From: a virus
Lineage: Duplodnaviria > Caudoviricetes
Reading direction: 5' to 3' (one strand)
Virus record (IMG/VR): IMGVR_UViG_3300006927_002472
Location: 1 to 42,695 of that record
Length of the DNA: 42,695 bases
Under the pieces are notes generated by a model. The model did not search any database. It was not told where the DNA came from and saw nothing but the letters and a program-made list of their open reading frames with translations. Numbering within the stretch: the first letter of the stretch is position 1; each line of letters starts with the position of its first letter. This document shows positions 4,607-31,875 of this stretch, piece by piece. Made by a program: the position numbers and the translations under genes.

Positions 4607-5718
4607 TCATATACCTCTTCAATCCATCTATTAACCCAATAAATTACATAATCAATATCTTCTTCAACCATTCTATTATTACAAGGTAATGAAATTAATT
4701 TAACCCACTCTTCCTCACAAACTGGATACTCTCTATCTTGTAACAATGGTGTATATTTGTATAATGGTTTAAAATGAACTGATGTATGTATTTTCTTATC
4801 TGCTAAATAATCAATCAAATTATCTCTGGTATATATTTTTACTGGTAATCTTGGACAATAGTATTGTACAGTTTCCGAATGCGGTGGTCTTTCTAATACT
4901 GGATGTAATTCATTATTATAACGTTCTTGAATATGTCTACGAAATTTTAAATGTTCAGGTAATTTTTTCATTTGTTCTAAACCAATCGCAGCAATAATAT
5001 CTATCATATAATATTTGTAACCAAGAATATCTACTTGATAATCCCAAGCATATCCAGGTTTACCACTTTTACCTTGAACTCTACTCCAAGTTGAAGATAC
5101 TCCAAACCAAGTCATTTCTCTACATCTATCAGCTAACTGTTTATCATCTGTAGTAATCATTCCACCATCGCCACAAGGTAATGTTTTAACCGCTTGAAAT
5201 GACCACACTGCACAATCTCCATCTAACCCAGCTCCTGGTGTATAACAACTGTGAGCTGTATCTTGAAGTATAAACCCATCAAATACTTTTCTTAACTCTT
5301 TATAGTCAGCAAAAACTCCAGCGTCATCTACAGCTATCAATAATTCACTATTAGGTTTTTTATATCTTTCAACTTCTTCAGGGTCAATACATAAAGTGTC
5401 TCGTTTTACATCAACAATATTAGAAGTAAAATTATTCCATAAAGGTATCATAGCAGTTGCTATAAAAGATATAGCTGGATTAATTACATCTATACCCTTC
5501 CAACCCATAGCCTTCATTACTAAATCTTGTCCATGTGAAGCACTTGTTACAGCTATAGCATATTTATGTCCAACCATTTCAGCAAACTTTTCTTCAAATT
5601 CAGCCACTTTAGGGCCTTTTCCCCACCATCCACTTTCAATAACTTCTTGTAGTGCTTGAACCTCTTCTTTACCACCTTTTGGCCCTAATACTGATAACAT
5701 ATTTTCTCTAATCTTCAT
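4603..5718 (-). CDS. DegT/DnrJ/EryC1/StrS sugar aminotransferase, copy 1
   Basis: GPKVAEFEEKFA, QDTAHS, SFQAVKTL..GDGGM (PLP lysine), LISLP. Start moved to ATG 5718 (MKIREN) by analogy with the paralog at 28391. Confidence 0.92.
   Translation of the reverse strand: MKIRENMLSVLGPKGGKEEVQALQEVIESGWWGKGPKVAEFEEKFAEMVGHKYAIAVTSASHGQDLVMKAMGWKGIDVINPAISFIATAMIPLWNNFTSNIVDVKRDTLCIDPEEVERYKKPNSELLIAVDDAGVFADYKELRKVFDGFILQDTAHSCYTPGAGLDGDCAVWSFQAVKTLPCGDGGMITTDDKQLADRCREMTWFGVSSTWSRVQGKSGKPGYAWDYQVDILGYKYYMIDIIAAIGLEQMKKLPEHLKFRRHIQERYNNELHPVLERPPHSETVQYYCPRLPVKIYTRDNLIDYLADKKIHTSVHFKPLYKYTPLLQDREYPVCEEEWVKLISLPCNNRMVEEDIDYVIYWVNRWIEEVYE
5417..5511. repeat. 95-nt perfect direct repeat, copy 1 (within DegT paralog 1)
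   Basis: Identical to 28090-28184 by manual comparison; offset 22673 nt; flanks remain highly similar. Confidence 0.9.
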
Positions 5719-5855
5719 TATCATCCTCTTCAAAAACTTCTATCATTAAAACATTATCATCATTAATCATAACCAATGCACCATTGTTTTGTAACTGACG
5801 ATTTTAAATCAACTTCTAATTCTTCAATTATATTTTTTAGTTCTTTTTTTTGCAT
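5708..5855 (-). pseudogene. Internally deleted, frameshifted paralog of the 73-aa gene at 28381-28602
   Basis: ATG 5855 gives MQKKELKNIIEELEVDLKSSVT; a different frame gives LQNNGALVMINDDNVLMIEVFEEDDNED-stop (TAG 5710-5708). These match LKSSV and NVLMIEVFEENENED of the paralog; span 148 nt is not a multiple of 3. Confidence 0.8.
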
Positions 5856-6248: not shown

Positions 6249-7001
6249 CTATTCCGTAGGTGGATTGTTTTCATCTATCTGTCCTCTTGCACACTCATAC
6301 ATAAAATCAGAATCTAAATACCGATTACTTAAATATGTTATTGCATTTGAACCATAAACACGATTAATTTTATATGCAAATAAAATAATAATTAAATTTC
6401 CAATACCACCGATACCTTTATGACCTTCTGTATGCCAATTTCCGTCTTTATCTTGTATTGGTTCTACCCAAATTGGTTCAAATCCATGTATATCTTTCAA
6501 GTACTTATATTTTGTACAGAAAAAACTGGTTCTCAATGTTTTAATTTGTAATTCCCTATCAAATAAATGTTTAGTTTCATCTTTAGTAAAATCTGCAAAC
6601 TGCTTACCACTTGCCTTTTCTATACCAAATGGATTAAAACTTGTTGGATAATTCATACAATTACCTATAAATTTATAATTAGAATCTAAAAGTTCAAGAC
6701 ATATATTTACACATTCCCAATTTTTTATTATCACATCATCTTGAAAAAATAAACATATTGTATCATCTTCTATATCTAAAAAATCTATTGCCTGTTGGAA
6801 TCCACCATCAGCCATACCTAAATTAGGAAACAATTTCCAATCAAAATTTTCTTTAACTTCTTTTGGTGGTTCTCTATGACATGAATAAAATACATCTACA
6901 AATTCATTTTCATTTTTAAATTCAATTAAACCATCTATTAAATTACTTTCTCCAGGATAATCAGTATAATGCCAACCAACAACTATTACTTGTATTTTCA
7001 T
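6249..7001 (-). CDS. Uncharacterised GT-A-like protein (GWH/HREP family, paralog of 12364-13275)
   Basis: Start moved to 7001 (ATGA overlap with upstream stop, GGAGG upstream); VVGWHY, SCHREP, CLFFQDD motifs. Confidence 0.55.
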   Translation of the reverse strand: MKIQVIVVGWHYTDYPGESNLIDGLIEFKNENEFVDVFYSCHREPPKEVKENFDWKLFPNLGMADGGFQQAIDFLDIEDDTICLFFQDDVIIKNWECVNICLELLDSNYKFIGNCMNYPTSFNPFGIEKASGKQFADFTKDETKHLFDRELQIKTLRTSFFCTKYKYLKDIHGFEPIWVEPIQDKDGNWHTEGHKGIGGIGNLIIILFAYKINRVYGSNAITYLSNRYLDSDFMYECARGQIDENNPPTE

Positions 7002-7972
7002 TTTTCCACATCCTCCCAAGTATATGTTTTAGATTGATTAAACATATTATATGCATTATGTTCACATAACTTATTTGCACTTTCATACCAACTATGTGCC
7101 TTTCTTAATGCACCTGTATTAGTTTTATCTATACCATCTTCTCCTAATACATAATTTCTTTTATTTGGATGTTTTCTATTATGAACCAATAATATGTTTT
7201 TTATTATAAATTGTGGAATTTTACCATCAAATGTTTTTATTAAACTATGCATGAATGCTGTATCTTCGTGTACAAAAAACACAGATTTTGGTATATTAAC
7301 ACCACTTTTAACTACATCAGATGATATCACTAAACCACAACCATTAAATTTATACTGGTGGGTAACTTGAATATCTAAATCTTCAACTTTATCATTAATT
7401 TCATCCATTTCTTTTCTATTCATTGTATATCTTAAACTCCACCAGTTTTCTGTATCACCATCTATGAATGGTTTATCTGTAAAATCTGGATGTTCTAAAA
7501 CTTTCCAACTGTCATCCCACATTTTACAAGTACTAAAAAATCCAACATACTTTGGAGTATCTCCGTTAATAGCTGTCGTGTGTAGATTATCTAAAATTTC
7601 AAATGTTTGTTTTGGTATTAATGAATCACTTTCACCCCACATTAAAACATCAACCTTTTCACAATAATAATCATTAAACCATCTACGATAATCCGCTATT
7701 GTAACAAGTTTATCTGTAACTCTCCATTCAACATCAACATCAAATGATTTCATCATATCTTGAAACTTAAATCTTAATGCATTTATTTCGTGTTCGTCAT
7801 CAATCTTTTCTAACTCTTGATTAGTTACAAAAGTAAAATCAACTGTTATATTTTCTTTATTTTCAATTTGTCCTAAAGATTGTTTTAAACTTTCTATATA
7901 TTCTTCAATGATTTTAATTTCATACCATTGAACAAGACAACCTATTGCAATTGTATTATTTAACTTAACCAT
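6998..7972 (-). CDS. Putative GT-A fold glycosyltransferase
   Basis: 324 aa; DVLMWGESDSL (DxD-like), NGCGLVIS and HEDTAF (ED motif) in GT2-like order. Confidence 0.5.
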   Translation of the reverse strand: MVKLNNTIAIGCLVQWYEIKIIEEYIESLKQSLGQIENKENITVDFTFVTNQELEKIDDEHEINALRFKFQDMMKSFDVDVEWRVTDKLVTIADYRRWFNDYYCEKVDVLMWGESDSLIPKQTFEILDNLHTTAINGDTPKYVGFFSTCKMWDDSWKVLEHPDFTDKPFIDGDTENWWSLRYTMNRKEMDEINDKVEDLDIQVTHQYKFNGCGLVISSDVVKSGVNIPKSVFFVHEDTAFMHSLIKTFDGKIPQFIIKNILLVHNRKHPNKRNYVLGEDGIDKTNTGALRKAHSWYESANKLCEHNAYNMFNQSKTYTWEDVEK

Positions 7973-8582: not shown

Positions 8583-9354
8583 TTAATTCCCCATAAAAAT
8601 GTTCGTATGTTTTTTGCATAAAATAATTTGAAATTTGATTGTCTTTATTATTAGGTATTGCATTATACTGATAAATCCAACCGATTTTTGTGAACAACAA
8701 ATCATCACCTAATATTTCTTTGCGTGTCATATCGCTCATATTATATTCATAAGGTAATAATTTTAAATCTATTCCTCTTTGATGTATTAACATATTAACC
8801 GGTGTTTGGTCTGTTCCAGTATGAAATGTTTCTTGTAATTGTATTAACAAATCTTGATTTGTAAAATAAAAGTTTACTATATCACGATAAAATTGTTTAT
8901 GATTTTTATTAACTAACACGAATCCACAATCAAGATACTTCCACCATGGCATCATATAATTATCAAATGCATGTTTTGAATAATTTTCTAAACTTCTTAA
9001 AACCCAATCCCAACTACCATCAAATTGTGCTCCACATAATTTACCTTCACTCATATCAAAAAAGTTAGGACACTCTGGATGTACTATTGTATCTGCATCA
9101 ATCATTAAAACTTGGTCATATTCTATTTCATTTGAGTCTAATATGTCAAATAAATAATATCTTTGCCAACAAATAGCCATTTTCTCTTTTTCCAAAACTA
9201 AATCATTTAACACAAATAACTCACAATTATTTTTATCACACCATCTTTTCCAACTATCTATTGAATACTTGTAAGCATATCTTCTACTACTTGAATATCT
9301 ACCATCACCACCTAAATCAATATCCATCATAAAAACTAAATTCTTAGTATTCAT
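8575..9354 (-). CDS. Glycosyltransferase, GT8/GT34-like GT-A fold
   Basis: YDQVLMIDADT DxD motif, YLDCGFVL, TDQTPVN, LPYEYN; start moved to ATG 9354 (MNTKNLV). Confidence 0.8.
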   Translation of the reverse strand: MNTKNLVFMMDIDLGGDGRYSSSRRYAYKYSIDSWKRWCDKNNCELFVLNDLVLEKEKMAICWQRYYLFDILDSNEIEYDQVLMIDADTIVHPECPNFFDMSEGKLCGAQFDGSWDWVLRSLENYSKHAFDNYMMPWWKYLDCGFVLVNKNHKQFYRDIVNFYFTNQDLLIQLQETFHTGTDQTPVNMLIHQRGIDLKLLPYEYNMSDMTRKEILGDDLLFTKIGWIYQYNAIPNNKDNQISNYFMQKTYEHFYGELNE

Positions 9355-10267
9355 AATCAAATAACTCCAAATCTCTACGATATACATTTGAAACTAATTC
9401 TATTGTTTCATCATCATAATAAGTTTTATAATTACTATGACTTCCACCAAAACGAACTGTTGGTAATCCAGTATAACCATGAATTTTTAATAACTCATAC
9501 TCCAAATTTAATTTATCACACAACACTTTAAAATCTTTATTTAAATTTTCAAACTTTCCTATAAAATCTACAAATAGTTCTTCATCTACTTCTGCATAAT
9601 AACTTTGATTCAACCAATGTGAATTTGAAGGATAACCTTTACTATCAAGTAAATTTCTTTTTACAAATGTCTTAAAATCTGGTGAACTATAATAACGACT
9701 ATCACGTGTTTGCCACATCTTCCTTTCTTGTAATGATAGCGCTTTAGATGCGATTTTATTAAAATTATTAGCACGTGTTTTAATTAAATATTCGTCAGCG
9801 TCACTCCCTACGCCCGGTACCCGCGGGTCACGGACACCACTATACATGGGTGTTTTCCTATAAGAAGACCATGTTATATCTTCTCGCAGATGGCTGTACG
9901 CAGAAACTAATCTATCAAACGGATTTCTAACAAAAACAAATTTAAAATAATCATTTTTAATTTCTTCATTTGTCAAGTTACTCCACCAAGTATCAAACTT
10001 TACTTTATCGTCTTTTTGACAACTACAATCTGGAACTAATCCCATACCCTTTACAATTTGTTTTTTAGGTTCCTGTTTATATGGTGGTAATCGTGCACCT
10101 TCACCAGCTGTACCTTCTTTAACTACGTCTAATCGAAACATACGTCTATAAATTGTAGTTCCAGCTGTTTTCGCTGGTTTCATATAAATAAAGTTGTTAT
10201 CAACAGAATAACACATATCTTTTAGTAAAAATTTAGTAGAATTAATATGACTTTTTATATTACTCAT
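9344..10267 (-). CDS. Sulfotransferase (Sulfotransfer_2 family)
   Basis: KPAKTAGTT 5'-PSB loop, FVRNPFDRLVSAY 3'-PB motif, HW..Q, DFIGKFENL..DF, Y..D.ELFDY; start at 10267 by ATGA overlap. Confidence 0.9.
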   Translation of the reverse strand: MSNIKSHINSTKFLLKDMCYSVDNNFIYMKPAKTAGTTIYRRMFRLDVVKEGTAGEGARLPPYKQEPKKQIVKGMGLVPDCSCQKDDKVKFDTWWSNLTNEEIKNDYFKFVFVRNPFDRLVSAYSHLREDITWSSYRKTPMYSGVRDPRVPGVGSDADEYLIKTRANNFNKIASKALSLQERKMWQTRDSRYYSSPDFKTFVKRNLLDSKGYPSNSHWLNQSYYAEVDEELFVDFIGKFENLNKDFKVLCDKLNLEYELLKIHGYTGLPTVRFGGSHSNYKTYYDDETIELVSNVYRRDLELFDYEY

Positions 10268-11631
10268 TTTAAATTTAAGATACAACCTTCTCTGTCATTC
10301 ATAGTCCAACCAGCTGCTGTTTTAAAACCTCGTTTCTCACCTATAAACGTATCTAATGATACAGCACCTGTAGTAACAATTTCATAAATAGCTTTTTGAA
10401 TTTCAACTTTCGGATTACCATAATCATCCATAATGATAATTGGTTTATTAAAATAATCCATAACTTTTGGTATATCGTGTTTCACGTGTTCGTATGTATG
10501 ACCCGCATCTATCATCACAACATCTACCTGTGGAAAATCCCATTCTTCTGTATAAATGTCTTTTTGTATAAATTCTACATTATCTCTATCTTTACATTTC
10601 TTTTCAGCTTGTTCTATATTCCAACTATCTTTTTCAACTCCATATACTTTTTTAAATACATTACTATAAACTACAGTTGAATTACCCTGACAACTACCTA
10701 ATTCTATCATTGTTAAATCTTTGTATTTCTTATGAGTAAAAGTTTTTAAAATATCTCTCTTAAATTTTCTACTCGTAGTGTATTTTGCTGTATCTTTATG
10801 TGGCATTAAATCTAAAATTTTATCATATTTTATTTCATCATAATTGTACCTACTTTTTATCATATCCCATGTTTGTTGCATTAACTTAGTTCTATTATCT
10901 TTAGGTATGCCATTAAAGCTACAGTTATATCCATACTTTATAAAAAAAGGTGTCTTATCTTCATCAAGTTGCCAGTTAAAATTAAATAATTCCTTCCTTT
11001 GTAAATGTGTTAATTTAAATGGTAAAGGTAAATCTGTATTTATATCAATGTTATTCGTCTGTAACCAATAATTCATAGGTGTTTGTTCTGTACCTTTCTT
11101 TACAACTTCATCTTGTAGTTTAACAAATTCTTCTATGTTATCTATATAAAACTGTTTAAAGTTATTGAATAAATCTTTATGTTTTTCATTAAACACCATA
11201 AATCCAGAGTTTACGTACTTAGTCATATCCAATTCAAAACCTCCGAATATATCTTTATATCCTTGAATACTTTCATATATCCACCTCATATTATCCATAT
11301 CTCTCCACGCAGTGAATCTTCTATCTGTTAGCTCGAAAAAGTTAGGTGTATCCCATCTAATCATAAAAGAACTATCAACCAGTGCTACCTGATCATATTC
11401 TATATTTCTTCTTTCAAGTTCATCGAATAAGAAAATAGCCTTTTGCCAATTTACTCTATACTTAAATAAATCTTTTTCTACTGGTTCAGTAAACGGTACA
11501 AATAAACAGTCATTTCGTTCACACCAGTATTCCCATGTATTTCTTGAGTATTGAAAATATTCATAACCCCCATACTTTTCTGTATGTTCTGTATTTACTA
11601 CTGCGGGCCACCAAACAACATTTTTTTTCAA
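10264..11631 (-). CDS. Glycosyltransferase (GT8/GT34-like) fused to Methyltransf_24-like domain
   Basis: N-half YDQVALVDSS, YVNSGFMVFN, TEQTPMN; C-half IELGSCQG, DVVMIDAGHTY, IMDDYG; TTG start overlapping upstream TGA. Confidence 0.8.
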   Translation of the reverse strand: MKKNVVWWPAVVNTEHTEKYGGYEYFQYSRNTWEYWCERNDCLFVPFTEPVEKDLFKYRVNWQKAIFLFDELERRNIEYDQVALVDSSFMIRWDTPNFFELTDRRFTAWRDMDNMRWIYESIQGYKDIFGGFELDMTKYVNSGFMVFNEKHKDLFNNFKQFYIDNIEEFVKLQDEVVKKGTEQTPMNYWLQTNNIDINTDLPLPFKLTHLQRKELFNFNWQLDEDKTPFFIKYGYNCSFNGIPKDNRTKLMQQTWDMIKSRYNYDEIKYDKILDLMPHKDTAKYTTSRKFKRDILKTFTHKKYKDLTMIELGSCQGNSTVVYSNVFKKVYGVEKDSWNIEQAEKKCKDRDNVEFIQKDIYTEEWDFPQVDVVMIDAGHTYEHVKHDIPKVMDYFNKPIIIMDDYGNPKVEIQKAIYEIVTTGAVSLDTFIGEKRGFKTAAGWTMNDREGCILNLK

Positions 11632-12371
11632 TTTAACAACTCCTGTGGAAAAGTACTTGTTTCACTATTCATTGAATCTAATAGTTCTTCGTTTCTCTCC
11701 TGTGTTAACGAAACAAAATTACCATAATTTGAATATCCATATTCTGACCATGAATATGGATGCATTAATACATGAAGTTTTTTAACTTTATTAAAATTTA
11801 ATTTCAATGGGTGTCCGAATTTCCATTGATGATTTGAATCTGATAAATAAGTTACATTTAAATCTTCTGGTAGAGGTCCTTCTACATATTCAAAAAACAA
11901 TTCACCATTACAATTAATCAACTCTTCAATTTTCACATACCAAGATAATAATTGTGGATTTACATTAGGTCTATGAAATGCAAATCTATCTATTTTAAAT
12001 CCATAATAATGTTCTAGCACTTCAATATCTTTCAAAATATTTTTTGTTATTTTTTCAGCTCCTAAATTTGGTGGATTTTGATGTAATCCTATCTTATGTC
12101 CCAAATCACGAATTTCTTGAACAGCCTTAATATTTTTTTCTGATAATGCGTTGTATGTATTATTTCTTAGTTGAACAGTATAAGTAGAAACTACACCTAA
12201 TTCATCAGCTTCTATTCTTGCCATTTTAAGAGCTCTATCAACTGAAAATTCTATATCATGTCTAAGTACACAAAATGATGTTGTATCACCATTTACATCA
12301 GCAAAATCAACAATAGGTAGATTTACTTTAATTAAATTGATAATATTTTTGAATTCGTTATAACTAAACAT
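11628..12371 (-). CDS. Polysaccharide deacetylase-like protein (WbmS-like)
   Basis: LRHDIE, GHKIGLH, FHRP, YLSDS..W, LMHP..W motifs. Confidence 0.75.
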   Translation of the reverse strand: MFSYNEFKNIINLIKVNLPIVDFADVNGDTTSFCVLRHDIEFSVDRALKMARIEADELGVVSTYTVQLRNNTYNALSEKNIKAVQEIRDLGHKIGLHQNPPNLGAEKITKNILKDIEVLEHYYGFKIDRFAFHRPNVNPQLLSWYVKIEELINCNGELFFEYVEGPLPEDLNVTYLSDSNHQWKFGHPLKLNFNKVKKLHVLMHPYSWSEYGYSNYGNFVSLTQERNEELLDSMNSETSTFPQELLN

Positions 12372-13275
12372 TTAACAACCCTTCTTCTAATAATCTTTCT
12401 ACTGTTGAATGATATAATGAACCTTGAGGTGTAGCTCTATTTGATAATAAACCTCGTTCACCTTCTAAACAATATTTACTAACTCTATATGCTGGTGAAA
12501 TATATCTAATTGTATCTAAATAACCATTTCTTACCATGAACCCATAAAAATTTTGAACTGGTTTTTCCCAATCTTTTATACTAAGACCACCTGTTGGGTA
12601 CGTAGTACCATAATAACCTATACCTGCATTGTCAGTTTCACCTGTTCTATCTAATTCAATATTATCTATATCAAATTTACCACCCATTTTTTCAATTATT
12701 TCTGGTTTAAAGAAATCAAATGACCCACGAACTTTACCAGTCATATTTACTATACCATTTGATAATATTAACCACTCACCATCATTTTTAACTTCTGAAT
12801 AATCACCCGGTCCTGCGTTTTTAAATTCTGGTAAATCATTCATAGAATAATCATTTCTAAATAAAGTTTCAATTTTATTATCTAATACATCAATAAACAA
12901 ATTATCGTTAAAAACGAAATTATCATCATGTGAAAATAAAAGCATATCATAATTCTTATAGTTATTTTTTTCTAACCATTGATTTGTAATAGCCCAATCA
13001 CCACAAGTATTTGGTTCTAATATATAATGCCAACCATTTTCTTCAAGATAATTAACAGTAGCTATTTTTTCGTATAAGATTTTATCTATTTTTTCTAAAG
13101 TACCATTACTTAATTGAGATAAAAATTTTTGTTTCTCTATATCAGATACTTCAGGTTCTCTATGAGAAACACAAAAATAATCAACTTCCCAATCTTTCGG
13201 TATTTTTTGTGTTCTTACCTGTTGATAAAATTTTAGTGGAAAGTGCCACCCATTAATTACTACAGCTAATTTCAT
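12364..13275 (-). CDS. Uncharacterised GT-A-like protein (GWH/HREP family, paralog of 6249-7001)
   Basis: VINGWHF, VSHREP, YDMLLFSHDD, RGSFDFF motifs. Confidence 0.55.
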   Translation of the reverse strand: MKLAVVINGWHFPLKFYQQVRTQKIPKDWEVDYFCVSHREPEVSDIEKQKFLSQLSNGTLEKIDKILYEKIATVNYLEENGWHYILEPNTCGDWAITNQWLEKNNYKNYDMLLFSHDDNFVFNDNLFIDVLDNKIETLFRNDYSMNDLPEFKNAGPGDYSEVKNDGEWLILSNGIVNMTGKVRGSFDFFKPEIIEKMGGKFDIDNIELDRTGETDNAGIGYYGTTYPTGGLSIKDWEKPVQNFYGFMVRNGYLDTIRYISPAYRVSKYCLEGERGLLSNRATPQGSLYHSTVERLLEEGLLNV

Positions 13276-14402
13276 ACAATCTCTTTCAAAACTTTAATAA
13301 CTTCTGTTTGTTCATCATCAGTTAATGTAGGATACATTGGTAATGAAAATATTTCATTAGCTAATTTTTCAGTTATTGGTAAATCTCCATCTTTCCAACC
13401 TAAATATTCATATCCTATCATAGTATGAACTGGCCACGGGTAACTTATATTTAAATGTATGTCTCTTTCAGTTAAATCTTTCATTATTCTATCCCTATCA
13501 GGATGAGCAACCACATATATATAATATCCATGTCTATTGTAGTAACATTCTTCAGGTAAAACTAATTCTGTATCTGATAATTCTTCATTATATCTTTCTG
13601 CAATCTGTCTTCTTCTATCTATCCATTCATCTATATAATTAAGTTTTTTAAGTAGTATTGCTGCATGTACTTCATCTAACCTAGAATTACAAGTATCTGG
13701 TCCATGTTCTAATGCATAATATTTACCATTCCAATGACCTGATGACATTTTTTTTCTTTCCATTCCAAAAAATCTCATACGATTCATCTTATCATATAAC
13801 TTCTCATCATTAGTTGTAATAAAACCACCATCACCATAAGCACCAAATATTTTAGTTGGATAAAAAGAAAAACAACCAACATCACCTATTGAACCTGCTT
13901 TTCTACCGTTATAAGTAGCACCGTGTGATTGTGCACAATCTTCAATAACTCGTAAATTATTCTCGTGAGCAGTATTCATAATAATACCCATATCACACAT
14001 TTGTCCAAACAAATGGACTGGTATAATTGCTTTAGTTTCATTATGTATTGCACTCTGTAATTCTACTACATCCATTAAAAAATATCTATCAACATCAACA
14101 AATACAGGTGTTGCTCCAGTCATTACAATAGCTGTTACAGTAGGAACTGCTGTGTTTGATACAGTAATAACTTCATCTCCTGTACCGATATTCATAGCTT
14201 TTAAAGCAATGTACAATGCATCTGTACAATTACCTACTCCTATACCAAACTTTGAATCACAATATTTAGAAAATTTTTCTTCAAACTCTTCTACTCTTGG
14301 ACCAAAAACCAATGTTCCTCCACTAAACACGTTATCTACTGCATCTAAAATTTCTTCTCTTAATGCTTCATATTCTTTTTTATAATCCCATACTTTTATC
14401 AT
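13272..14402 (-). CDS. dTDP-sugar C3 aminotransferase, DnrJ/EvaB-like
   Basis: IEDCAQSHGA, SFYPTKIFGAYGDGG, NSRLDEVHAA, plus subfamily-type VWDY..EY...R..ILDAV and LNISYPWPVHTM segments. Confidence 0.88.
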   Translation of the reverse strand: MIKVWDYKKEYEALREEILDAVDNVFSGGTLVFGPRVEEFEEKFSKYCDSKFGIGVGNCTDALYIALKAMNIGTGDEVITVSNTAVPTVTAIVMTGATPVFVDVDRYFLMDVVELQSAIHNETKAIIPVHLFGQMCDMGIIMNTAHENNLRVIEDCAQSHGATYNGRKAGSIGDVGCFSFYPTKIFGAYGDGGFITTNDEKLYDKMNRMRFFGMERKKMSSGHWNGKYYALEHGPDTCNSRLDEVHAAILLKKLNYIDEWIDRRRQIAERYNEELSDTELVLPEECYYNRHGYYIYVVAHPDRDRIMKDLTERDIHLNISYPWPVHTMIGYEYLGWKDGDLPITEKLANEIFSLPMYPTLTDDEQTEVIKVLKEIV

Positions 14403-14411
14403 AATTGTCTC

Positions 14412-15179
14412 CTATACGTGTGATATGATAGTTCTAACTGAATTAGCTACCCAAGATTCTTTTTCTAAACATTGTTTTATTTGATACATACTCATCCAAA
14501 TAAAATTATCATTTTTAAAAGTAATATTATACTCTTCTTCTACTTCTACTATCATATTCAAATTTCGTTTACTATAAAATCTACCACCGTCTTCAGATTG
14601 CCATTTCTTCAATAAAACTTTACCTACTTTTTCCGCATTCTGAAAAATATTTAAATAATTTGGAACATTACCTAAATGAGCTGCGTTTATATTACTGAAT
14701 GTAGCTTGTAATGTTGGACTAATTTGAACTAAATTTACATTACCCGGTTCTGATTTGGCTTCCAATAAATAATGTGGTATTCCTTCAAATCTTTTTCTAA
14801 CAATCCCGAGTATACCACCATCTAAACCAACTTGTTTAAAAAGGGGTTGGTCCCATCCTCTTTTTGCTTCTCTAATTTTAGTGTGTACTCTAAGTGCTTG
14901 AACTGAATAAAATTCACCACTTGTATGATATATAATATCTCCATCAAAAATCCATTCACTACAGTCTTTCAAAGATATTTCTTCAATAACCATTTCTTTT
15001 TTATCAAGTACACTTTGATACCATTTTTCTATATCTTCAAATGTATGAAAAGTTGACCAATCTTTTAAAGTTTCAAAATGAAACTCTAATTGATTTTCAT
15101 CAATTTTACTTGTCATATTTAAACCTAAAATATGTTTTTTATATTTATTTAACTGTTTTAAATATTTATCTTGTTTCAT
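14412..15179 (-). CDS. NDP-hexose 2,3-dehydratase family protein (single domain)
   Basis: H.SG.FYSV..LRV, WDQPL, GILG, AK.EPGN...VQISPTLQAT.SN, QSEDGGRFY.KRN.NMIVEV as in EvaA/DnmT/OleV. Confidence 0.9.
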   Translation of the reverse strand: MKQDKYLKQLNKYKKHILGLNMTSKIDENQLEFHFETLKDWSTFHTFEDIEKWYQSVLDKKEMVIEEISLKDCSEWIFDGDIIYHTSGEFYSVQALRVHTKIREAKRGWDQPLFKQVGLDGGILGIVRKRFEGIPHYLLEAKSEPGNVNLVQISPTLQATFSNINAAHLGNVPNYLNIFQNAEKVGKVLLKKWQSEDGGRFYSKRNLNMIVEVEEEYNITFKNDNFIWMSMYQIKQCLEKESWVANSVRTIISHV

Positions 15180-16072
15180 TTTAAACTCTCAACTGTTAAC
15201 TTAACTCCATCTTGTAAATTAACTCTTGGTTGCCAACCAATTACTTCTTCTAATAACCTATAATCTCCTACATAACTACGCATTTCAATGGGATTCAAAT
15301 CAATAGTATCATCTTCCGTGACTGTAACATCTGTTAGTACAGAGGCTATAGTGTTCCACATATCTGATATAGTTGTTAATTTATTACTTCCTACTACAAA
15401 AAATCTACCATCAAAAATATCATCATTAGCTAAACCTGTCTTTATAAAAGCTTTAACTATATCATCAATATAAACATAATCTCTATAACAATTTCTATTC
15501 TTAAATAACTTTAATTGTTTATGTTCAATTCCATATTTTATGACTCTGGCAATCAATGAACCTGACGTTTTTCTATTTATATCTTTATCTCGAACAGGAC
15601 CGTAGATATTTGGTAATCGTAAAATAATACTTTTCAATCCAAACTTTTCGTTATATATTTTTAAATAATGTTCTGAAAGTAGTTTGTGTGCTGACCATTC
15701 TGCTGCTGGTTTTGCATTTGTGTTTTCATTTACTTTATCTTCATTTACTATTCCAAATACATTAGTTGAACTTGCAAAAATAATTTTTGGATTACATCTT
15801 TTCTCAACACAAGTTTGTAACATATGTAAAACTGATACTGAATTTACATTTAAATCTCTTTCTGGTGTTTCATGTTCTACTTCTACAGCTGCTAAATGAA
15901 AAATAATATCAATATCATCTTTTATAATATCATTCCAAGTTTCTTTTTTAGATACATCACCGGTAGAAATAATTAAATTACAATCAATGGAATTAAACGA
16001 CTTTACTAAAGTTGAACCTATATAACCTGTACTACCTGTTATTAATATATTTAATCCTTCATAAGAAGTCAT
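15176..16072 (-). CDS. NAD(P)-dependent epimerase/4-ketoreductase (extended SDR)
   Basis: ITGSTGYIG, FHLAA, FASS, LRLPNIYGP, RDYVYIDD; the YxxxK position reads WSAHK. Confidence 0.82.
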   Translation of the reverse strand: MTSYEGLNILITGSTGYIGSTLVKSFNSIDCNLIISTGDVSKKETWNDIIKDDIDIIFHLAAVEVEHETPERDLNVNSVSVLHMLQTCVEKRCNPKIIFASSTNVFGIVNEDKVNENTNAKPAAEWSAHKLLSEHYLKIYNEKFGLKSIILRLPNIYGPVRDKDINRKTSGSLIARVIKYGIEHKQLKLFKNRNCYRDYVYIDDIVKAFIKTGLANDDIFDGRFFVVGSNKLTTISDMWNTIASVLTDVTVTEDDTIDLNPIEMRSYVGDYRLLEEVIGWQPRVNLQDGVKLTVESLK

Positions 16073-16546
16073 TTAAAATCCTGTCTTACCATCCCATTCA
16101 AATGGTATTAATTCATCATTAAACGGTATTCTGTATTCATCGAGTTCTTCATGATGATACGGTTCAGTTGTAATACTAATAATATAAGCATCCTCTTTAC
16201 CTACAGCTTCAAAACCGTGATAACAACCTGTTGGTATTTTTACTAATACTGGATTATCTTTGTTTACAATATATTCTTTTAATTCACCGTATGTCGGTGA
16301 ACCATCTCTATCATCAAATACAACAATTCGAGCTGTACCATTAATACAAGTAAAATAATCTGTTTTTATTCTATGATAATGCCAAGCTTTTACAAAACCT
16401 GGTTCGCAGCAAGTGATATATACTTGACCGAATTTTTTATAAATAGGATCATCCATTCTCAATATTTCCATTAAAAATCCTCTATCATCTGAATGAATTG
16501 TCAACTCTTTAGTTATAAAAGCATCTTCATATTCTTTTTCTTTCAT
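16073..16546 (-). CDS. dTDP-4-keto-6-deoxyhexose 3,5-epimerase (RmlC-like cupin)
   Basis: H.DDRG, PG.VKAWHYH, D.R..SPTYG, IPTG.YHGF. Confidence 0.88.
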   Translation of the reverse strand: MKEKEYEDAFITKELTIHSDDRGFLMEILRMDDPIYKKFGQVYITCCEPGFVKAWHYHRIKTDYFTCINGTARIVVFDDRDGSPTYGELKEYIVNKDNPVLVKIPTGCYHGFEAVGKEDAYIISITTEPYHHEELDEYRIPFNDELIPFEWDGKTGF

Positions 16547-16547
16547 A

Positions 16548-17000
16548 TTAATCTATCTCCATTTTATTTTTTTCTTTTATTATATAATCACTACAAATAC
16601 CTGCACAGTTACTATAAGCTGTCTTACTTATTCTTTGTATTTCTGGTAATACACATATTGATTTTTCTGTTAATGGGTACGTTGGATATGTCCATAAATA
16701 ACCGTGTGAAGTCAATGTAACATCATCTTTTTGATGAAAGAAACAATGAGCTTCTATCTTTTGTAGTTCATATAATACCTGAATATCTTTAGCGTGACAC
16801 CAAACTTCTTTTCTTTTTAGAAAATCTGTTCTAACTCTATATTGAGGTCTATCATGTCCAGTCCAAAATATTCCCTCATACCAATGAACATCAATCTCTA
16901 CATCAAAACCTTGTTCAATAGCTTCTTCACAATATCCTTGACCATTTTCAAGTTTTGACTCTTTACCGTTTGTATTTCCTCTATGTGCTATAAAAATCAT
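16548..17000 (-). CDS. Glycerophosphodiester phosphodiesterase-like (PLC-like) small protein
   Basis: IAHRGN, EN, GFDVEIDV, GHD, WCHAK, GICSDY. Confidence 0.75.
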   Translation of the reverse strand: MIFIAHRGNTNGKESKLENGQGYCEEAIEQGFDVEIDVHWYEGIFWTGHDRPQYRVRTDFLKRKEVWCHAKDIQVLYELQKIEAHCFFHQKDDVTLTSHGYLWTYPTYPLTEKSICVLPEIQRISKTAYSNCAGICSDYIIKEKNKMEID

Positions 17001-17696
17001 CTATAACTCCCTCACATCTATAAAACTACCACTTTCAAGTTCTTCTTTTAATTGTGGTAATAACTCATAAATCTTCTCTGCAGCCTCATCTGCAGAAGGA
17101 GCTTCATTATTTTCTCTTAATTCTACAAACTTTTTTTTCCATTCAAATTTCTCCCCATCTACTTCTTCACATATAAAATCTTGCATTGAAGTATTTACTG
17201 GTCCTGGTGAAAGTGATAAAAAATGTGTTTTAGGATTTTCAATTGCATAAACTTTCATCATCATATTAAGTGCTGCTTTAGAAATAGAATAATTTCCCCA
17301 ACCTGTATATGTATTAATTGCTGCACCCGAAGATATTGCTACTACTTGTTTAACTTCAATTTTCTTATTAATTAAATAATCAATAATCATTTTATTAGAT
17401 AATGTATTAATATCAAGTACTCTTTCTAGTTCGGGTAAAACTACTTTATTTGAAAATTCAATTTGACCGAGAACACCCGCATTAAGGATAACCACATCAA
17501 TTTCACTTACATCTTTTAGCAAAGTTCGTAATTTTTCAGGAATTTGATGTTTCCATATAAGATCACATTCAATATGATTATACCCTTTAACTTCGCTTCT
17601 ACTCAATCCAGATACGGTATATCCTGTCTCAGAGTACTTTTCAGCTAAAGCTTTCCCTAATCCAGCACTCATTCCTGTGATTAAAACATTCTTCAT
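17001..17696 (-). CDS. Short-chain dehydrogenase/reductase (YueD/sepiapterin reductase-like)
   Basis: ITGMSAGLG, NAG, ISSGAA, YSISK, SPGPVNTSMQ. Confidence 0.88.
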   Translation of the reverse strand: MKNVLITGMSAGLGKALAEKYSETGYTVSGLSRSEVKGYNHIECDLIWKHQIPEKLRTLLKDVSEIDVVILNAGVLGQIEFSNKVVLPELERVLDINTLSNKMIIDYLINKKIEVKQVVAISSGAAINTYTGWGNYSISKAALNMMMKVYAIENPKTHFLSLSPGPVNTSMQDFICEEVDGEKFEWKKKFVELRENNEAPSADEAAEKIYELLPQLKEELESGSFIDVREL

Positions 17697-18670
17697 TATA
17701 TTTCCACTCCATGATAATATAGTAACAACAATTCTTTATTAAAATTATCTCTATCTAATCCTTTTACTAAATCACAAAATAGAATAAACTTACTCATTGG
17801 TACATTTAATTTTCTAGCTTGTGTTGCATAGTGGTCTGTAATACCATATCTTCCAGTTACCATAAGATATGGACTTACTGTTTTCTTAAATAAGGCTTCA
17901 TAATATTTGTGAATAAACTCATTCAATTTCAATGCTTTATCATCATCAAGTACATTCTCTAATTTTAAATTACCGGCACCCTTTCCAAGAGACATTACTG
18001 ATGTATCACAGTAATCTACATAAGGACTTTCAAGACACTTAATATAATTCATATAAGCTTTACCAGTATGATTGTGTAGATGAAAACAAGTTTTCTTTCC
18101 AGAATCTATTATCCTCTTGAAAAATTGTTCATATCTTTTTATATCTCTATGTAAATTTAAATGTCCGTGTGTATCTGCAAAACCTATAATATCAAAATCA
18201 GAATCAAGAACAATATCAAGTGCAGAATTGAGTTCATCATCTATATAATTGGTCGTATTAAAAAGATTAAATGCTATAACTAAACCAGTATGTTTTTTTA
18301 GTTTAACGGCAAATTCAAATCCCTCTTTAACCATATCTTTTCTACAAGTCATTCTAATCATTTTAATTTCATTTTGATTATCTGTAGGATAGTCGTTTAA
18401 ATCTTTACTACAATAAGAATAGTCAATCATAACAGATATATTATTTTTACCTTGTTCACCTGTAACTTTTTTGACTGTATCTATATCTAAATTAAAAAAT
18501 CTATTCTTACTTTTCGCTGTTTGTTTCCAATAACCCATCTCTACATAACTAACATCTAATTCACTCATTAAATTATAATACTCTTGTGCAAATTCTATTG
18601 GCCAATCGAAATCACAAGTAAATCCACCGTCTCTTAATGTAACATCAACTAATTCTATTGTTTCTTTCAC
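17696..18670 (-). CDS. DRE-TIM metallolyase, 4-hydroxy-2-oxovalerate aldolase-like
   Basis: DVTLRDGG, FADTHG, FHLHN, GKGAGNL.LE; GTG start. Confidence 0.88.
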   Translation of the reverse strand: MKETIELVDVTLRDGGFTCDFDWPIEFAQEYYNLMSELDVSYVEMGYWKQTAKSKNRFFNLDIDTVKKVTGEQGKNNISVMIDYSYCSKDLNDYPTDNQNEIKMIRMTCRKDMVKEGFEFAVKLKKHTGLVIAFNLFNTTNYIDDELNSALDIVLDSDFDIIGFADTHGHLNLHRDIKRYEQFFKRIIDSGKKTCFHLHNHTGKAYMNYIKCLESPYVDYCDTSVMSLGKGAGNLKLENVLDDDKALKLNEFIHKYYEALFKKTVSPYLMVTGRYGITDHYATQARKLNVPMSKFILFCDLVKGLDRDNFNKELLLLYYHGVEI

Positions 18671-19313
18671 TATATAACTCTGCTAGTTTAAAATCTTCAA
18701 AAGTATCTATCTCTATACTCTCAGGTAATTGTATCGGATAAAAATAATTATTTTCACTCGTTCTATTCTTATTCTTCATAAATTCTTTTTTCGTGAATAT
18801 AAAGAAAGCTCCATTACCCATTATAACTGGTTCTAAATTCTGTGTTTTAGGAACTTCTTCAGGATTAAAATTTACCGGTTGTCCTTTGAAATATGTAAAT
18901 TCTTTATGTTCTGTACACGCACATACTGTATCATAACCTTTAGTTAACATTTCAGTAGCTTTTAGTATAGTTTTTAACTTTATAAAAGGTGATGTTACAT
19001 GAGGTGTTATTATTATTCCATCTTCATCAACAACAAATTTATTTAAAAAGTTTTCAATCATAAATAGTACCGGACTTACTCCAAATTCAATATTATTCTC
19101 CATCTCAACAAATCTTGAATCTCTTTTATAACAAGTTATATTAGTTAAAGTTTTACATTCATTAAATATTCTATCACTATCTGTATCTATATATACATCT
19201 TCGAGTGCCAACTCATTTAACAAATGCCTATATAATGGTATACCACTTAAAGTAAGAAAGTTTTTATTGGGTAATCTTTCTGATTCTTCTTTTATTATTA
19301 TAAAAAATTTCAT
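18645..19313 (-). CDS. Acylneuraminate (CMP-ulosonic acid) cytidylyltransferase, NeuA-like
   Basis: K..SERLPNKNF, IDTDS, HVTSPF, KTQNL, NGAFFI, IEIDT.EDF..AE. Confidence 0.88.
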   Translation of the reverse strand: MKFFIIIKEESERLPNKNFLTLSGIPLYRHLLNELALEDVYIDTDSDRIFNECKTLTNITCYKRDSRFVEMENNIEFGVSPVLFMIENFLNKFVVDEDGIIITPHVTSPFIKLKTILKATEMLTKGYDTVCACTEHKEFTYFKGQPVNFNPEEVPKTQNLEPVIMGNGAFFIFTKKEFMKNKNRTSENNYFYPIQLPESIEIDTFEDFKLAELYSERNNRIS

Positions 19314-21467: not shown

Positions 21468-22197
21468 CTTTTTTCCTTTGTACTATTTTTTTATCTTTTA
21501 TCAATCCTACTTCTGTCCACTCTGTTAAAAAATCTGAACGTGTTTTTATTTCTTCATAAGCCCCCACTATATCCATCGCTTTAGGTTCAGTCCAATGAGC
21601 TTTATGTACCCATGCGTGTTCTGCTAAATTTCCTGACCAATAATCATCAAATATTACTATACCACCTTCACTTACAAGTTTAGCATAGTCATCCCAATCT
21701 TGTATTACACCCTTTTTTGTATGGTCTCCGTCTATAAATAATAAATCTATTGAACTCCCTAATATAGAATTAACTTTTTCAATAACTGATGAATCGTGTG
21801 ATGAACCTTCTATCAGATTATATAAATGTTTATGTTTATTATGTTTTACTACATTACTATTTACTGAAGAAATTGTGTTAGTCCCCCCACTTACAGGGTC
21901 TTCTGTAAGTCCTGTTCTACTTTTATAGTAACCATTAAAATAATCAATTGAAACATAATGTGATTTGTATACAGTCTGCATCATTGTTAACATAGAACCG
22001 CCCCATAAAGTTCCAATATCTAAAACTTTCTTACACGTATCTCCCATCAACTCTTTAACTAAATATAAAATATGAGTTGCTCCGTGTTCAGCATTCATAG
22101 CTACTCTACCAATCATATCTTTATTGATAGATTCTACAACTTCTAATGAATAATCTAATTTTTTGTGATTTAATATATCTTCTAATTTAAGTTGCAT
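21457..22197 (-). CDS. Class I SAM-dependent methyltransferase (Methyltransf_24-like)
   Basis: LDIGTLWGGS, IEGSS, IDLLFIDGDHT..GV..D, GGIVIFDDY; start placed at ATG 22197. Confidence 0.9.
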   Translation of the reverse strand: MQLKLEDILNHKKLDYSLEVVESINKDMIGRVAMNAEHGATHILYLVKELMGDTCKKVLDIGTLWGGSMLTMMQTVYKSHYVSIDYFNGYYKSRTGLTEDPVSGGTNTISSVNSNVVKHNKHKHLYNLIEGSSHDSSVIEKVNSILGSSIDLLFIDGDHTKKGVIQDWDDYAKLVSEGGIVIFDDYWSGNLAEHAWVHKAHWTEPKAMDIVGAYEEIKTRSDFLTEWTEVGLIKDKKIVQRKKDGI

Positions 22198-23602
22198 TCC
22201 TACTCTCAAATTCTTTTACATATCTATCTAAATCTTCTGGTGTTCCTAATCCCCACATCTGTTTTCTATCAATATGATATGTCTTTATCTTTTTACCATC
22301 TTCTATTGCTTCATTATAAACAGGACATACATAAAATTCATTATTAGTTCTAACATCTTTATCTAACATTTGTTTACAATATTTTATATAATCAGAACCT
22401 CTTGTCCAAAAATATACACCAACTGTAGCTATATTACTAATTGGGTCTTTCTCAGCTACTCTTTCAACGTATCCGTTATCATCAAGTTTTGCAAAACTCC
22501 ATTTCGGGTGTGTTGATTTAAATGTTAATATCCCTCCATCAATATCATCTGCTATCATAGAATACATAAACTCATTACTATTCCAATCAAGATACTGGTC
22601 TGAATTTGCCATTAATAATGGTTCATCATTATTAATATATTTTTCTGCTAATAATGTTGTACACGCCGCACCTTCAGTTATTCCATCTATCTGTACAATT
22701 TCACAGTTGGGTGAAATTAAGTTTAATAAATGTTTTAAATTATACTTTTCATAATGTTTTTTTTGTACAACATAAATATACTTAGCTTCTATGTTTAAAC
22801 TTTCCACTACCAGTTGTATCATGGGTTTTCCTTCTACATCAACTAATGGTTTTGGAAAACTATAACCAACTTTTTCAAATCGTTTTCCGGCTCCTGCCAT
22901 CGGTATTAATACATTCATTGTATCTCCTTGCCACTTAGGTTTAATTTCTCCATCTCTATCCGTTGTCTTAATTACTTTTTTAATTTTATCATAACTAACA
23001 TCTTCAGTATTTTTTACAGAACATAAAATTGCTCCACTACTTAAAGCACCTTTTCTACCTATATGTGAATCTTCTACAATTACAGTTTCATTTGGATTTA
23101 CTTCCGCCTTAATCATACACTTTAAATACATTTCTGAATTTGGTTTTGAATTTTTTACATCCTGATTAGAATACATAAAATCAATATATTCAAAAAAACC
23201 TTTTCTAATTAATTGTAATTTAGCCGTTTCTCTAATTGAATTAGTTGCACATGCTAATTTATAACCTTCTGATTTTAAACTTCTTAGTATACCTCTGATT
23301 CTATCATCTACATTAAATCCATCAATAATCTTTAAGGTCATTTCTTGTTTTAATTTCCATACAGTATCATGTAAGTTTTCAGGTAGTCCTTTATTTGTTG
23401 TAAGCATATTTAATTTTTTAGTAGTTGATAATCCGTCGTATGTTGACAAATGTTCATCTCGATTTATAATATATTTTTGATTTATATGTGATAACGCTTT
23501 ATTCAACGCTTCATAATGTATTTCTCTTGCGTCAACTAATACTCCATCTAAATCAAAAATTATTAATTTAATACGTGTTGTATTTACATTATTTTTATCC
23601 AC
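22187..23602 (-). CDS. HAD-family hydrolase fused to BcbE-like nucleotidyltransferase
   Basis: N-half FDLDGVLVD, ATNS, KP, VEDS..G; C-half IPMAGAG.RF...PKPL, TEGAACT, ANSDQ, AEK.PIS..A..G.Y, NEFYV.PVYN, GLGTPEDL. Confidence 0.9.
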   Translation of the reverse strand: MDKNNVNTTRIKLIIFDLDGVLVDAREIHYEALNKALSHINQKYIINRDEHLSTYDGLSTTKKLNMLTTNKGLPENLHDTVWKLKQEMTLKIIDGFNVDDRIRGILRSLKSEGYKLACATNSIRETAKLQLIRKGFFEYIDFMYSNQDVKNSKPNSEMYLKCMIKAEVNPNETVIVEDSHIGRKGALSSGAILCSVKNTEDVSYDKIKKVIKTTDRDGEIKPKWQGDTMNVLIPMAGAGKRFEKVGYSFPKPLVDVEGKPMIQLVVESLNIEAKYIYVVQKKHYEKYNLKHLLNLISPNCEIVQIDGITEGAACTTLLAEKYINNDEPLLMANSDQYLDWNSNEFMYSMIADDIDGGILTFKSTHPKWSFAKLDDNGYVERVAEKDPISNIATVGVYFWTRGSDYIKYCKQMLDKDVRTNNEFYVCPVYNEAIEDGKKIKTYHIDRKQMWGLGTPEDLDRYVKEFESRNAT

Positions 23603-23614
23603 AATAACTCCCCT

Positions 23615-23944
23615 TTAATCAACTTTAAATACTACTTTATCACCGACTTTACTCGGAGTTTTTACACATATAATACCACAATCTTCTAAAAAATCTGGGT
23701 CTGCTATTTCATATGGTTTAACAATAAAAATATCTCCTGTGTTTAACTCTTTCCCCTGCATTATCATTTTACCACTAACTAATAAATTTATTTCAGTAAT
23801 ATCTTTATGATAATGCCATTCCCATTGTTCACCTTTTGGGTGTACTCTATAACAAACTTCAAAATCTTTTGTTTTATATGCTGTAGGTTCAAAGTCTCCA
23901 ACAAACCAACCCTTAAACATATCTTTAAGTTTAAATATATCCAT
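23615..23944 (-). CDS. Small cupin-domain protein
   Basis: GWFVGDF.P, HYHK..TEINL..SG.M, GDIF.V.P.E; start at 23944 by TAATG overlap. Confidence 0.75.
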   Translation of the reverse strand: MDIFKLKDMFKGWFVGDFEPTAYKTKDFEVCYRVHPKGEQWEWHYHKDITEINLLVSGKMIMQGKELNTGDIFIVKPYEIADPDFLEDCGIICVKTPSKVGDKVVFKVD

Positions 23945-26422: not shown

Positions 26423-27282
26423 TACGCATCACCTAAAACTATAGTTTTACCTTCACCGCTATATCTAAGATAATCAATATTAGAATAATCATAATCTTTG
26501 ATTCTATAGTTAGTCCAATCTCCTGCATAAGGTCTGTTTATATTTATACAACCTGCTATATTATCTATACCAGCTCCTACATCCATAAAAATAGCATTAG
26601 TATATTTTTTAAATCTATACAGTAATGCAGATTTAGAATGTCCTATACCTAAAAGAAATATTTTTGATGTTGATTCTTTTAATTGTTTACCTACAAAATC
26701 TTCAACTAAATTTACATCATCACATGCATACTTTTGTGGAAAGTGTATATAATCATTAAAATTATCTAATCCTAAATATTCTTTATATTCATCATACTGC
26801 ATAAGTTCTTCAATCAAATACAATTTTTCACTAGCTCCTATCAAACCAATACTATTACCAAATTCTTTAAAAAACCATTTATTAGAAACTAAACTGTAAC
26901 CATATTCAGCTGGATAATGTATCTCTATATCTGGTATTACATCTGTAAACATTCTTCTATTCTCTGGATATATTTCACACATATAATAATCATTTAGTTT
27001 AGCTCCATCTACAAAATCTTGATGATTAATTTCTTCAAATGGTAAACTTAAAGCTCTATTACCTGGTTTTGCACTACCGACTCCATTTTTAGTCAAGAAA
27101 TAATAATCTCCGTCTCCGAATTTATAAAACGTTTTAGAAGCTTTAACGTGTACAAGTTGTTTTAGATGTGATTTAAATTTAATTAAATCTTCTTGAAATT
27201 CTGGATATGTATTATTATCTCTGAAACAAGAATGTGGATCTAAATTTATTGTATTATTTATTTTATATAAATCAGAGTACAC
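26422..27282 (-). CDS. Putative GT-D fold-like glycosyltransferase
   Basis: FYKFGDGD, LLGIG..K and MDVGAGID resemble DUF1792/GT-D motifs (RFGDGE, D.G...D); GTG start overlapping upstream TAG. Confidence 0.5.
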   Translation of the reverse strand: MYSDLYKINNTINLDPHSCFRDNNTYPEFQEDLIKFKSHLKQLVHVKASKTFYKFGDGDYYFLTKNGVGSAKPGNRALSLPFEEINHQDFVDGAKLNDYYMCEIYPENRRMFTDVIPDIEIHYPAEYGYSLVSNKWFFKEFGNSIGLIGASEKLYLIEELMQYDEYKEYLGLDNFNDYIHFPQKYACDDVNLVEDFVGKQLKESTSKIFLLGIGHSKSALLYRFKKYTNAIFMDVGAGIDNIAGCININRPYAGDWTNYRIKDYDYSNIDYLRYSGEGKTIVLGDA

Positions 27283-31873: not shown

Positions 31874-31875
31874 TT

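Follow-up and report, generated by a model that had tools for sequence, protein, structure and literature searches.

The locus described here raises the question of whether a phage makes a deoxyamino sugar of the kind borne by staurosporine, daunorubicin and vancomycin. It consists of four genes of a large uncultured marine phage, found in a virus record (Duplodnaviria; Caudoviricetes), IMG/VR record IMGVR_UViG_3300006927_002472, whose 42,695 nucleotides were analysed as a whole and are referred to as the window. Judging from sequence, we consider it somewhat more probable than not that the four gene products convert dTDP-4-keto-6-deoxyglucose to a dTDP-3-amino-2,3,6-trideoxyhexose. This sugar would then be added to a glycan that the phage makes itself, the best candidate carriers being virion proteins. 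Within this proposal, 2-deoxygenation and C3 amination are likely.

The four neighbouring open reading frames (ORFs) listed by an earlier reading of the DNA (the sequence-only reading) were confirmed on the minus strand, with the Pfam families expected of them. They comprise a cupin of 157 amino acids (aa) at 16546-16073 (PF00908, E = 5e-17; PF14667, E = 9e-16), predicted to be a sugar 3,5- or 5-epimerase; an extended short-chain dehydrogenase/reductase (SDR) of 298 aa at 16072-15176 (PF01370, E = 5e-36), a predicted C4-ketoreductase from a subfamily whose catalytic Tyr is replaced by Trp; a one-domain nucleoside diphosphate (NDP)-hexose 2,3-dehydratase of the EvaA/StaJ family, 255 aa, at 15179-14412 (PF03559, E = 2.8e-59); and a pyridoxal phosphate (PLP) aminotransferase of a StaI/EvaB-type clade, 376 aa, at 14402-13272 (PF01041, DegT; E = 7e-108), predicted to aminate C3 of a 2,6-dideoxy-3,4-diketo sugar. 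The activities are predictions drawn from directly observed genes, order, families, residues, clade and neighbourhoods.

The junctions between the genes measure 0, -4 and +9 bp. Their base composition (GC 0.27-0.31, and 0.12-0.145 at third codon positions, GC3) is close to that of the replication genes on the same contig (GC 0.27-0.29, GC3 0.15-0.16). Recent transfer from an actinomycete, which the sequence-only reading had doubted on account of the AT-richness shared with the neighbours, is rejected on this composition and on the position of the dehydratase in its tree. One of the four metagenome runs examined, X12, which was not flagged as a possible source, yields a single contig spanning 14482-16773 with two differences, and hence the unusual residues described below did not arise in assembly. 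Of 24 runs listed, 19 contain half or more of the sampled window words; all 19 are marine or vent metagenomes, and 10 of them are flagged as possible sources. No RNA run is listed among those containing the sequence. All four genes are thus genuine and undamaged, and it is a phage that carries them.

The dehydratase was correctly recognised in the sequence-only reading: beyond the PF03559 match, it keeps both catalytic glutamates of EvaA, Glu139 and Glu190 corresponding to Glu144 and Glu196 here, and the two positions are invariant in 69 of 69 aligned homologues. The EvaA structure 4J7G is its only solved relative (E = 1.4e-54). According to the available part of a review (PMC8987622), EvaA works through pocket A, pocket B being left over from a duplication, and cannot do without Glu139 and Glu190. 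EvaA (471 aa) carries two tandem domains in one chain; the phage protein carries PF03559 once, aligns with both EvaA domains (113.6 and 73.3 bits), and has no second PF03559 gene beside it among 54 window ORFs.

The short form constitutes a family rather than a truncation, given that 119 of the best 120 candidates do not exceed 283 aa (some are possibly fragments; 1617 of 1838 candidates of 140-447 aa were scored) and that 74 of the best 80 dehydratase loci in GTDB are one-domain, a few of them touching contig ends. In a quick tree of 111 rows, one-domain dehydratases form a clade with a support of 98 in the Shimodaira-Hasegawa-like approximate likelihood ratio test (SH-aLRT). The window dehydratase falls in an 18-row subclade (SH-aLRT 99) whose placed members come from the viral contigs L002, L003 and L011 and the metagenome contig L178; none of the GTDB rows, which represent about half of the 80 loci, lies in it.

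A comparison of alignment columns among 69 one-domain, 19 N-domain and 20 C-domain rows points to how a single domain might work. The one-domain proteins retain positions specific to the N-domain (K142, S154, T160, H168, G170 and K204) and also those specific to the C-domain (R103, E104, an acidic residue at 197, G199 and R200). Since residues that EvaA-type domains conserve separately are thus kept together, the phage enzyme is predicted, from column conservation, to form homodimers in which both composite sites are complete, a condition like that before the duplication. It could represent the ancestor of EvaA in experiments; the second pocket of EvaA itself is a dead leftover of that duplication. 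A separate observation on this family is that contig L195 (3541-4789) encodes a two-domain dehydratase as distinct N-type and C-type ORFs, either a natural split or a frameshift.

The aminotransferase had been assigned to the DnrJ/EvaB type on motifs that are present in the sequence, and the assignment was borne out when its placement was examined in a tree. In a quick tree of 89 sampled rows, it shares with a StaI orthologue a 36-row clade (SH-aLRT 100) apart from WecE. The two signature motifs, VWDY and LNISYPWPVH, are identical in both proteins, which are 50.8% identical overall; within the clade, 16 and 21 of the 23 rows compared carry them, and outside it none of 181 aminotransferases does. 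Asp155 and Lys184, which we take to be the PLP-binding Asp and Lys of the DegT family, are invariant in the 23 aligned sequences. The StaI orthologue is encoded on a Streptomyces clavuligerus plasmid (L096) and is so designated because its gene order (ferritin-like, P450, methyltransferase, dehydratase, SDR, aminotransferase, rfbC, methyltransferase, monooxygenase) matches the order staD-P-MA-J-K-I-E-MB-C given for the staurosporine cluster in the accessible text of PMC3640393; roles of the sta sugar genes are described in the part available of PMC12525477.

Source databases label close homologues of the aminotransferase EvaB, and one at 71% identity bears a Pelagibacter name. A close aminotransferase was found in 0 of 60 Pelagibacteraceae genomes at E = 1e-110, a result that leaves the donor undecided. 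On plasmids, the closest matches (49-52%) come for the most part from actinomycetes. The aminotransferase alignment retrieved 158 loci. Those with a dehydratase no more than 5 kb away number 7 of 7 at 60% identity or above, 8 of 16 at 47-60% and 0 of 135 below, i.e., 15 of 23 coupled against 0 of 135.

In the proposed pathway, the one-domain dehydratase homodimer would remove the C2 hydroxyl to give a 3,4-diketo-2,6-dideoxy sugar, and the StaI/EvaB-type enzyme would aminate C3, steps that we regard as quite likely. The cupin would then invert C5 and the SDR would reduce C4, probably using His129 in place of its missing Tyr, to yield L-ristosamine, L-acosamine or L-daunosamine; for these two steps our confidence is lower, and moderate. 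The precursor would come from host RmlA and RmlB or from phage genes outside the record. Glycosyltransferases around the cassette would likely transfer the sugar, perhaps including the virus-specific protein described further below.

The observations that weigh against this proposal begin with the SDR and the cupin. The SDR matches PF01370, has the extended fold and carries the nucleotide-binding GxxGxxG. The Y-x-x-x-K of StaK, EvaE and DnmV is absent: the columns that read Y-D-R-Q-K in the StaK orthologue read W-S-A-H-K here. Across 68 SDR homologues, column 126 holds Trp in 53, Tyr in 11 and Phe in 4, while His129 is found in 64 and Lys130 in all 68. This is a conserved subfamily without the usual catalytic acid, and its presumed reductase role is read from gene context. 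The SDR is 19% identical to the StaK orthologue and the cupin 23% identical to StaE, neither being orthologous.

The cupin, in turn, is RmlC-like in its PF00908 and PF14667 matches and in keeping the RmlC His (His56). It falls below the TIGR01221 cut-off (49 bits against 156; the StaE orthologue, at 144, is also just below), and has Asp63 in the Lys column and Ser124 in the Tyr column, the His, Lys and Tyr columns being presumably the catalytic residues of RmlC. It carries an H-x-H...D...H cupin motif and is not a canonical RmlC or StaE. The archaeal locus L081 encodes a 50% identical homologue of this cupin, in which the Tyr is also absent, after rmlB, rmlD and a short rmlA and beside a dehydratase; this neighbourhood supports an RmlC-like role for the cupin subfamily. 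SpsL of Bacillus is, we assume, a cupin of the same short type. Rhamnose on spores needs SpsI-L, as stated in the available portion of PMC4191935.

Given the non-canonical SDR and cupin, an L-configured, C4-reduced product is less certain. The departures in these two proteins, like the single domain of the dehydratase, had gone unremarked in the sequence-only reading. The alternative that survives best is that the dehydratase and aminotransferase alone act as in actinomycetes, with the SDR and cupin doing otherwise or acting on another sugar, and the product being D-configured or differently reduced. The missing SDR Tyr and cupin residues just described fit this view, as does the viral contig L003, which has a dehydratase-aminotransferase pair with no SDR or cupin gene in the locus. 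Against it stand the strong conservation of Lys130 and His129, the close cupin homologue in the RmlC slot of L081, and the recurrence of the SDR subfamily on apparently the same contigs as the pair. Among the top rows of the homologue tables, five source contigs, judged by identical length, are apparently common to SDR, dehydratase and aminotransferase, an indirect indication; dehydratase-aminotransferase pairs fall on apparently shared contigs ten times, against 0.19 in jittered controls; and the source coordinates of P0243-P0003 and of P0011-P0135 show the same abutting arrangement. On balance, we consider this alternative unlikely.

The remaining adverse points concern the other parts of the proposal. 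The best solved matches of the aminotransferase are the archaeal 7B0D, QdtB (second, 281 bits) and other DegT enzymes. By a hand count from the alignment, the identity to 7B0D is about 47%, little below the value of 51% for StaI, and therefore identity alone is not decisive. The aminotransferase tree was built without bootstrap, and DnrJ, EvaB, FdtB and QdtB are not among its rows. The identity bands of the coupling count were chosen after the data had been seen, and of its eight misses at 47-60%, five are in loci shorter than 7.3 kb and three in longer ones of more than 10 kb. The literature yielded no biochemical work on a one-domain dehydratase, EvaA itself being two-domain. No capsid gene or acceptor is in view in the fragment. 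Finally, a six-frame search of the contig found neither RmlA nor RmlB above cut-off, nor a C-methyltransferase (PF08484), in agreement with the sequence-only reading, which had seen no C3-methyltransferase, RmlA or clear RmlB nearby. PF08484 is absent from the two records G000 and G070, both incomplete, so that the C3-methyltransferase of the EvaA-E (vancosamine) pathway was not found.

As for the substrate, rmlA and/or rmlB lie beside 12 of 15 cellular one-domain loci (16 were given, one without such candidates), and the viral contig L014 encodes a true RmlB of its own. These neighbours make dTDP-4-keto-6-deoxyglucose the likely substrate, as the sequence-only reading had it, while the daunosamine, acosamine or ristosamine that it named as product is subject to the doubt on configuration and C4 reduction given above. 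A CDP-sugar substrate was considered and rejected, the dehydratase neighbours being rmlA and rmlB. Diversion of the rhamnose precursor of the host is no more than a possibility, because the record covers roughly one quarter of the genome and the related contig L014 brings its own RmlB.

The cassette is part of a wider pattern. A survey for the 2,3-dehydratase family, of the kind that the sequence-only reading had called for, found no homologue in 50,697 GenBank phage records and found it on 14 IMG/VR contigs, the same set in two scans with different patterns; one of the 14 is a near-identical copy of the window and several others look redundant. The partners vary. On L003 a C-methyltransferase and a 75% identical aminotransferase stand beside the dehydratase, giving a vancosamine-type set; on L002 and L005 the dehydratase occurs with a Gfo/Idh/MocA reductase, a 3-ketoreductase partner that is not found in the window; on L011 with a C-methyltransferase and RmlC; and on L006-L010 and L012-L014 with a small SDR and RmlC. 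The exact four-gene set was found in IMG/VR only in the near-identical copy, which was also the only match when viral contigs were scanned with the aminotransferase alone; two SDR scans of viral contigs likewise found no close relative beyond it. In five fragmentary dehydratase-bearing viral records, a family B polymerase was found in none and a clamp loader in two, one of which is that copy.

The following was observed at these viral loci. The consecutive C-methyltransferase, one-domain dehydratase and StaI/EvaB-type aminotransferase of L003 (6869-9863; also on L178) lie among 2OG-Fe(II) oxygenases and a TTL-like ligase. Short DegT-like proteins of about 211 aa with an internal deletion are encoded near the dehydratase genes of L002 (6459-7097) and L005 (10659-11294). 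Near the same dehydratases, L005 (5028-7759) and L002 (10355-13042) carry heptose-epimerase-like, PfkB kinase and cytidylyltransferase-like genes, which suggests phage heptose synthesis.

The pathway is not specific to actinomycetes: one-domain dehydratases are widespread in marine bacteria and archaea. Hence the 'antibiotic-type' label of the sequence-only reading overstated the rarity of a chemistry for which many glycan loci of marine bacteria and archaea carry the genes. These cellular loci share the enzyme family, usually beside rmlA/rmlB; the sampled ones differ from the phage in mostly using a Gfo/Idh/MocA-sized reductase and a WecE- or DesI-like C4 aminotransferase rather than the StaI/EvaB type. 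Contigs L179-L181 and L188 carry a methyltransferase, a two-domain dehydratase and a StaI/EvaB-type aminotransferase.

Among known systems, the StaJ/StaK/StaI/StaE module of L096, the product of which is presumably L-ristosamine, has the same four activity classes, also without a C-methyltransferase. Unlike that module, the phage has a one-domain dehydratase (32% and 27% identical to the two StaJ halves), the Trp-bearing SDR, a different cupin subfamily and no aglycone genes: no polyketide synthase, nonribosomal peptide synthetase or indolocarbazole aglycone enzyme was found among the 54 window ORFs. With EvaA-E of Amycolatopsis orientalis, which make dTDP-epivancosamine, the phage set shares the catalytic glutamates, and close homologues are labelled EvaA and EvaB in source databases; EvaA differs in being a fused two-domain protein with one dead pocket, and an EvaC-type methyltransferase is absent from the phage contig, whereas L003 has one. 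The DnmT/DnmJ/DnmU/DnmV set for dTDP-daunosamine presumably covers the same predicted reactions, a likeness of reactions rather than of compared sequences.

The island that carries the cassette belongs to a phage. The window is a whole linear virus record estimated to be about 24% complete, and the near-identical record is estimated at 13%, which places the genome at roughly 180-320 kb. A replication module on the minus strand (36071-42452) encodes a PD-(D/E)XK nuclease, clamp loaders, a sliding clamp and a family B polymerase (PHROGs 69, 225, 168, 223 and 262), i.e., a T4-like replisome in phage order, on a fragment without a capsid or terminase gene. Of the 56 window ORFs, 13 have counterparts within 42 kb of the isolated phage Mel-JY01; the replication genes are collinear with it at 29-55% identity, and glycosyltransferases come next there as well. 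The near-identical record runs on into a single-stranded DNA-binding protein (SSB), UvsX, a helicase and ribonucleotide reductase (RNR).

Around the cassette, profile searches of the window ORFs delimit a glycan biosynthesis island of about 35 kb (157-34850, minus strand), with GT2 and GT4 enzymes, two more DegT aminotransferases, a PseB-like dehydratase, nucleotidyltransferases, methyltransferases and a sulfotransferase. Only one of 56 minus-strand ORFs has a predicted membrane segment and no flippase or polymerase was found, and therefore no lipid-carrier export system is present. A virion protein is preferred as acceptor because the island is large, soluble and diverse; this is the least certain step of the proposal, and we would put its chances at about even.

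A second alternative, which we consider improbable, accepts the sugar as proposed and has it hypermodify the phage DNA as an anti-restriction shield. The island adjoins the replication module, where a 'nucleotide modification associated domain 1' gene (PF07659) lies at 36931-37326, its Mel-JY01 counterpart being 55% identical; one GT4 enzyme weakly matches PF20706, below cut-off; and glycosylation of phage DNA is known (PMC12619734, in the part available). However, no TET/JBP or hydroxymethylase match was found in the window, and the set of about 40 glycan genes, in which sulfation, methylation and several amino sugars are represented, would look more like one for a surface glycan.

A third possibility, for which we see very little room, is that the cupin is a 3,4-ketoisomerase and the aminotransferase of the FdtB/QdtB type, making an ordinary 3-amino-3,6-dideoxyhexose, with the dehydratase inactive or unrelated. 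The H-x-H cupin motif, the rank of QdtB among the solved matches and a dehydratase half the length of EvaA are compatible with it; the FdtA family PF05523 gave no match, though, the StaI-type motifs are absent from all 181 aminotransferases outside the clade, and the dehydratase retains all catalytic and composite-site residues and travels with that clade. That the contig is a cellular surface-polysaccharide island wrongly called viral, such islands being a recognised source of false viral genes for which an ocean catalogue excluded contigs (PMC11360552, accessible part), is scarcely credible given the phage replisome collinear with Mel-JY01 and followed by glycosyltransferases there too, the continuation of the near-identical record into SSB, UvsX, helicase and RNR, the absence of rmlAB, flippase and polymerase, and the fact that none of the GTDB rows in the tree falls in the dehydratase subclade of the window.

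In line with the sequence-only reading, which knew of no such pathway in a phage, no report of a trideoxy amino-sugar pathway in a phage was found in the open-access literature; the gene tables of PMC11360552 might list such enzymes. Virus-encoded nucleotide-sugar synthesis and transferases are described for giant-virus rare sugars, mycobacteriophage virion glycans and moraphage glycosyltransferases (PMC9614988, PMC12619734 and PMC10117803). In the available text of these papers no 2-deoxy amino sugar is described, and 2,3-dehydratase does not occur in that of PMC9614988 and PMC12619734; the latter treats large aquatic phages with core glycosyltransferases and, in the same portion, never uses 'sugar' or 'dehydratase'. 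Digitoxose has been found in a Tannerella glycan (PMC6120980, available part), and thus 2,6-dideoxy sugars are known outside antibiotics.

The chemistry itself is already known and common in cellular glycan loci. What appears undescribed is a diversified, partner-swapping phage module with a one-domain dehydratase and a tyrosine-less SDR. More tentatively, and with less than even confidence, we suggest that a large marine phage lineage has long kept its own clade of the pre-duplication homodimeric 2,3-dehydratase, swapping its partners (3-aminotransferase, C-methyltransferase, 3-ketoreductase, epimerase) so that its virions become covered in deoxysugars of the anthracycline, vancomycin and macrolide types, here with an SDR that would reduce without a catalytic tyrosine. 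If the proposal holds, phages produce 2-deoxy amino sugars that until now have been studied as parts of drugs from actinomycetes, and the range of virion or DNA glycans is wider. Given that a global ocean catalogue left out contigs carrying glycan islands (PMC11360552, as far as its accessible text goes), ocean gene catalogues may have missed the pathway. The Trp-for-Tyr SDR would require a non-standard mechanism, and the compact, soluble phage enzymes could serve rare dTDP-sugar production in glycodiversification.

Next to the cassette, a virus-specific 303-aa protein (12364-13275, minus strand) overlaps the aminotransferase stop and is a candidate glycosyltransferase, offered as a weak lead. 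It has no Pfam, NCBIfam or PHROG family, and comparisons with window 6249-7019 and with the gene that follows the aminotransferase on L003 gave nothing significant. Between 95 and 100% of its atlas neighbours are viral, and in one cluster 10% of the members carry PF00535. No tRNA genes were found in the window, and promoters and terminators were no more frequent than in shuffled sequence (44 against 44.0 and 1 against 1.5).

Elsewhere in the island, the two further DegT aminotransferases (4603-5733 and 27282-28415) are 86% identical to each other and far from the other tree rows, the first being preceded by a PseB-like dehydratase and a GNAT acetyltransferase. A cytidylyltransferase, an HMGL-like aldolase and a short SDR in a row (17001-19313) suggest ulosonic acid synthesis and CMP activation, and an adenosine phosphosulfate (APS) kinase-like gene (157-684) together with the sulfotransferase (9344-10285) suggests glycan sulfation. 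Two nucleotidyltransferase-HAD fusions of opposite domain order flank a small cupin-sized gene (22187-25041). In three DNA runs, summed contig depth is much higher over 16948-17611, 22260-22923 and 27572-32200 than over the cassette; this excess, which is not a copy number, may mean that related phages share those island genes, the cassette varying among them.

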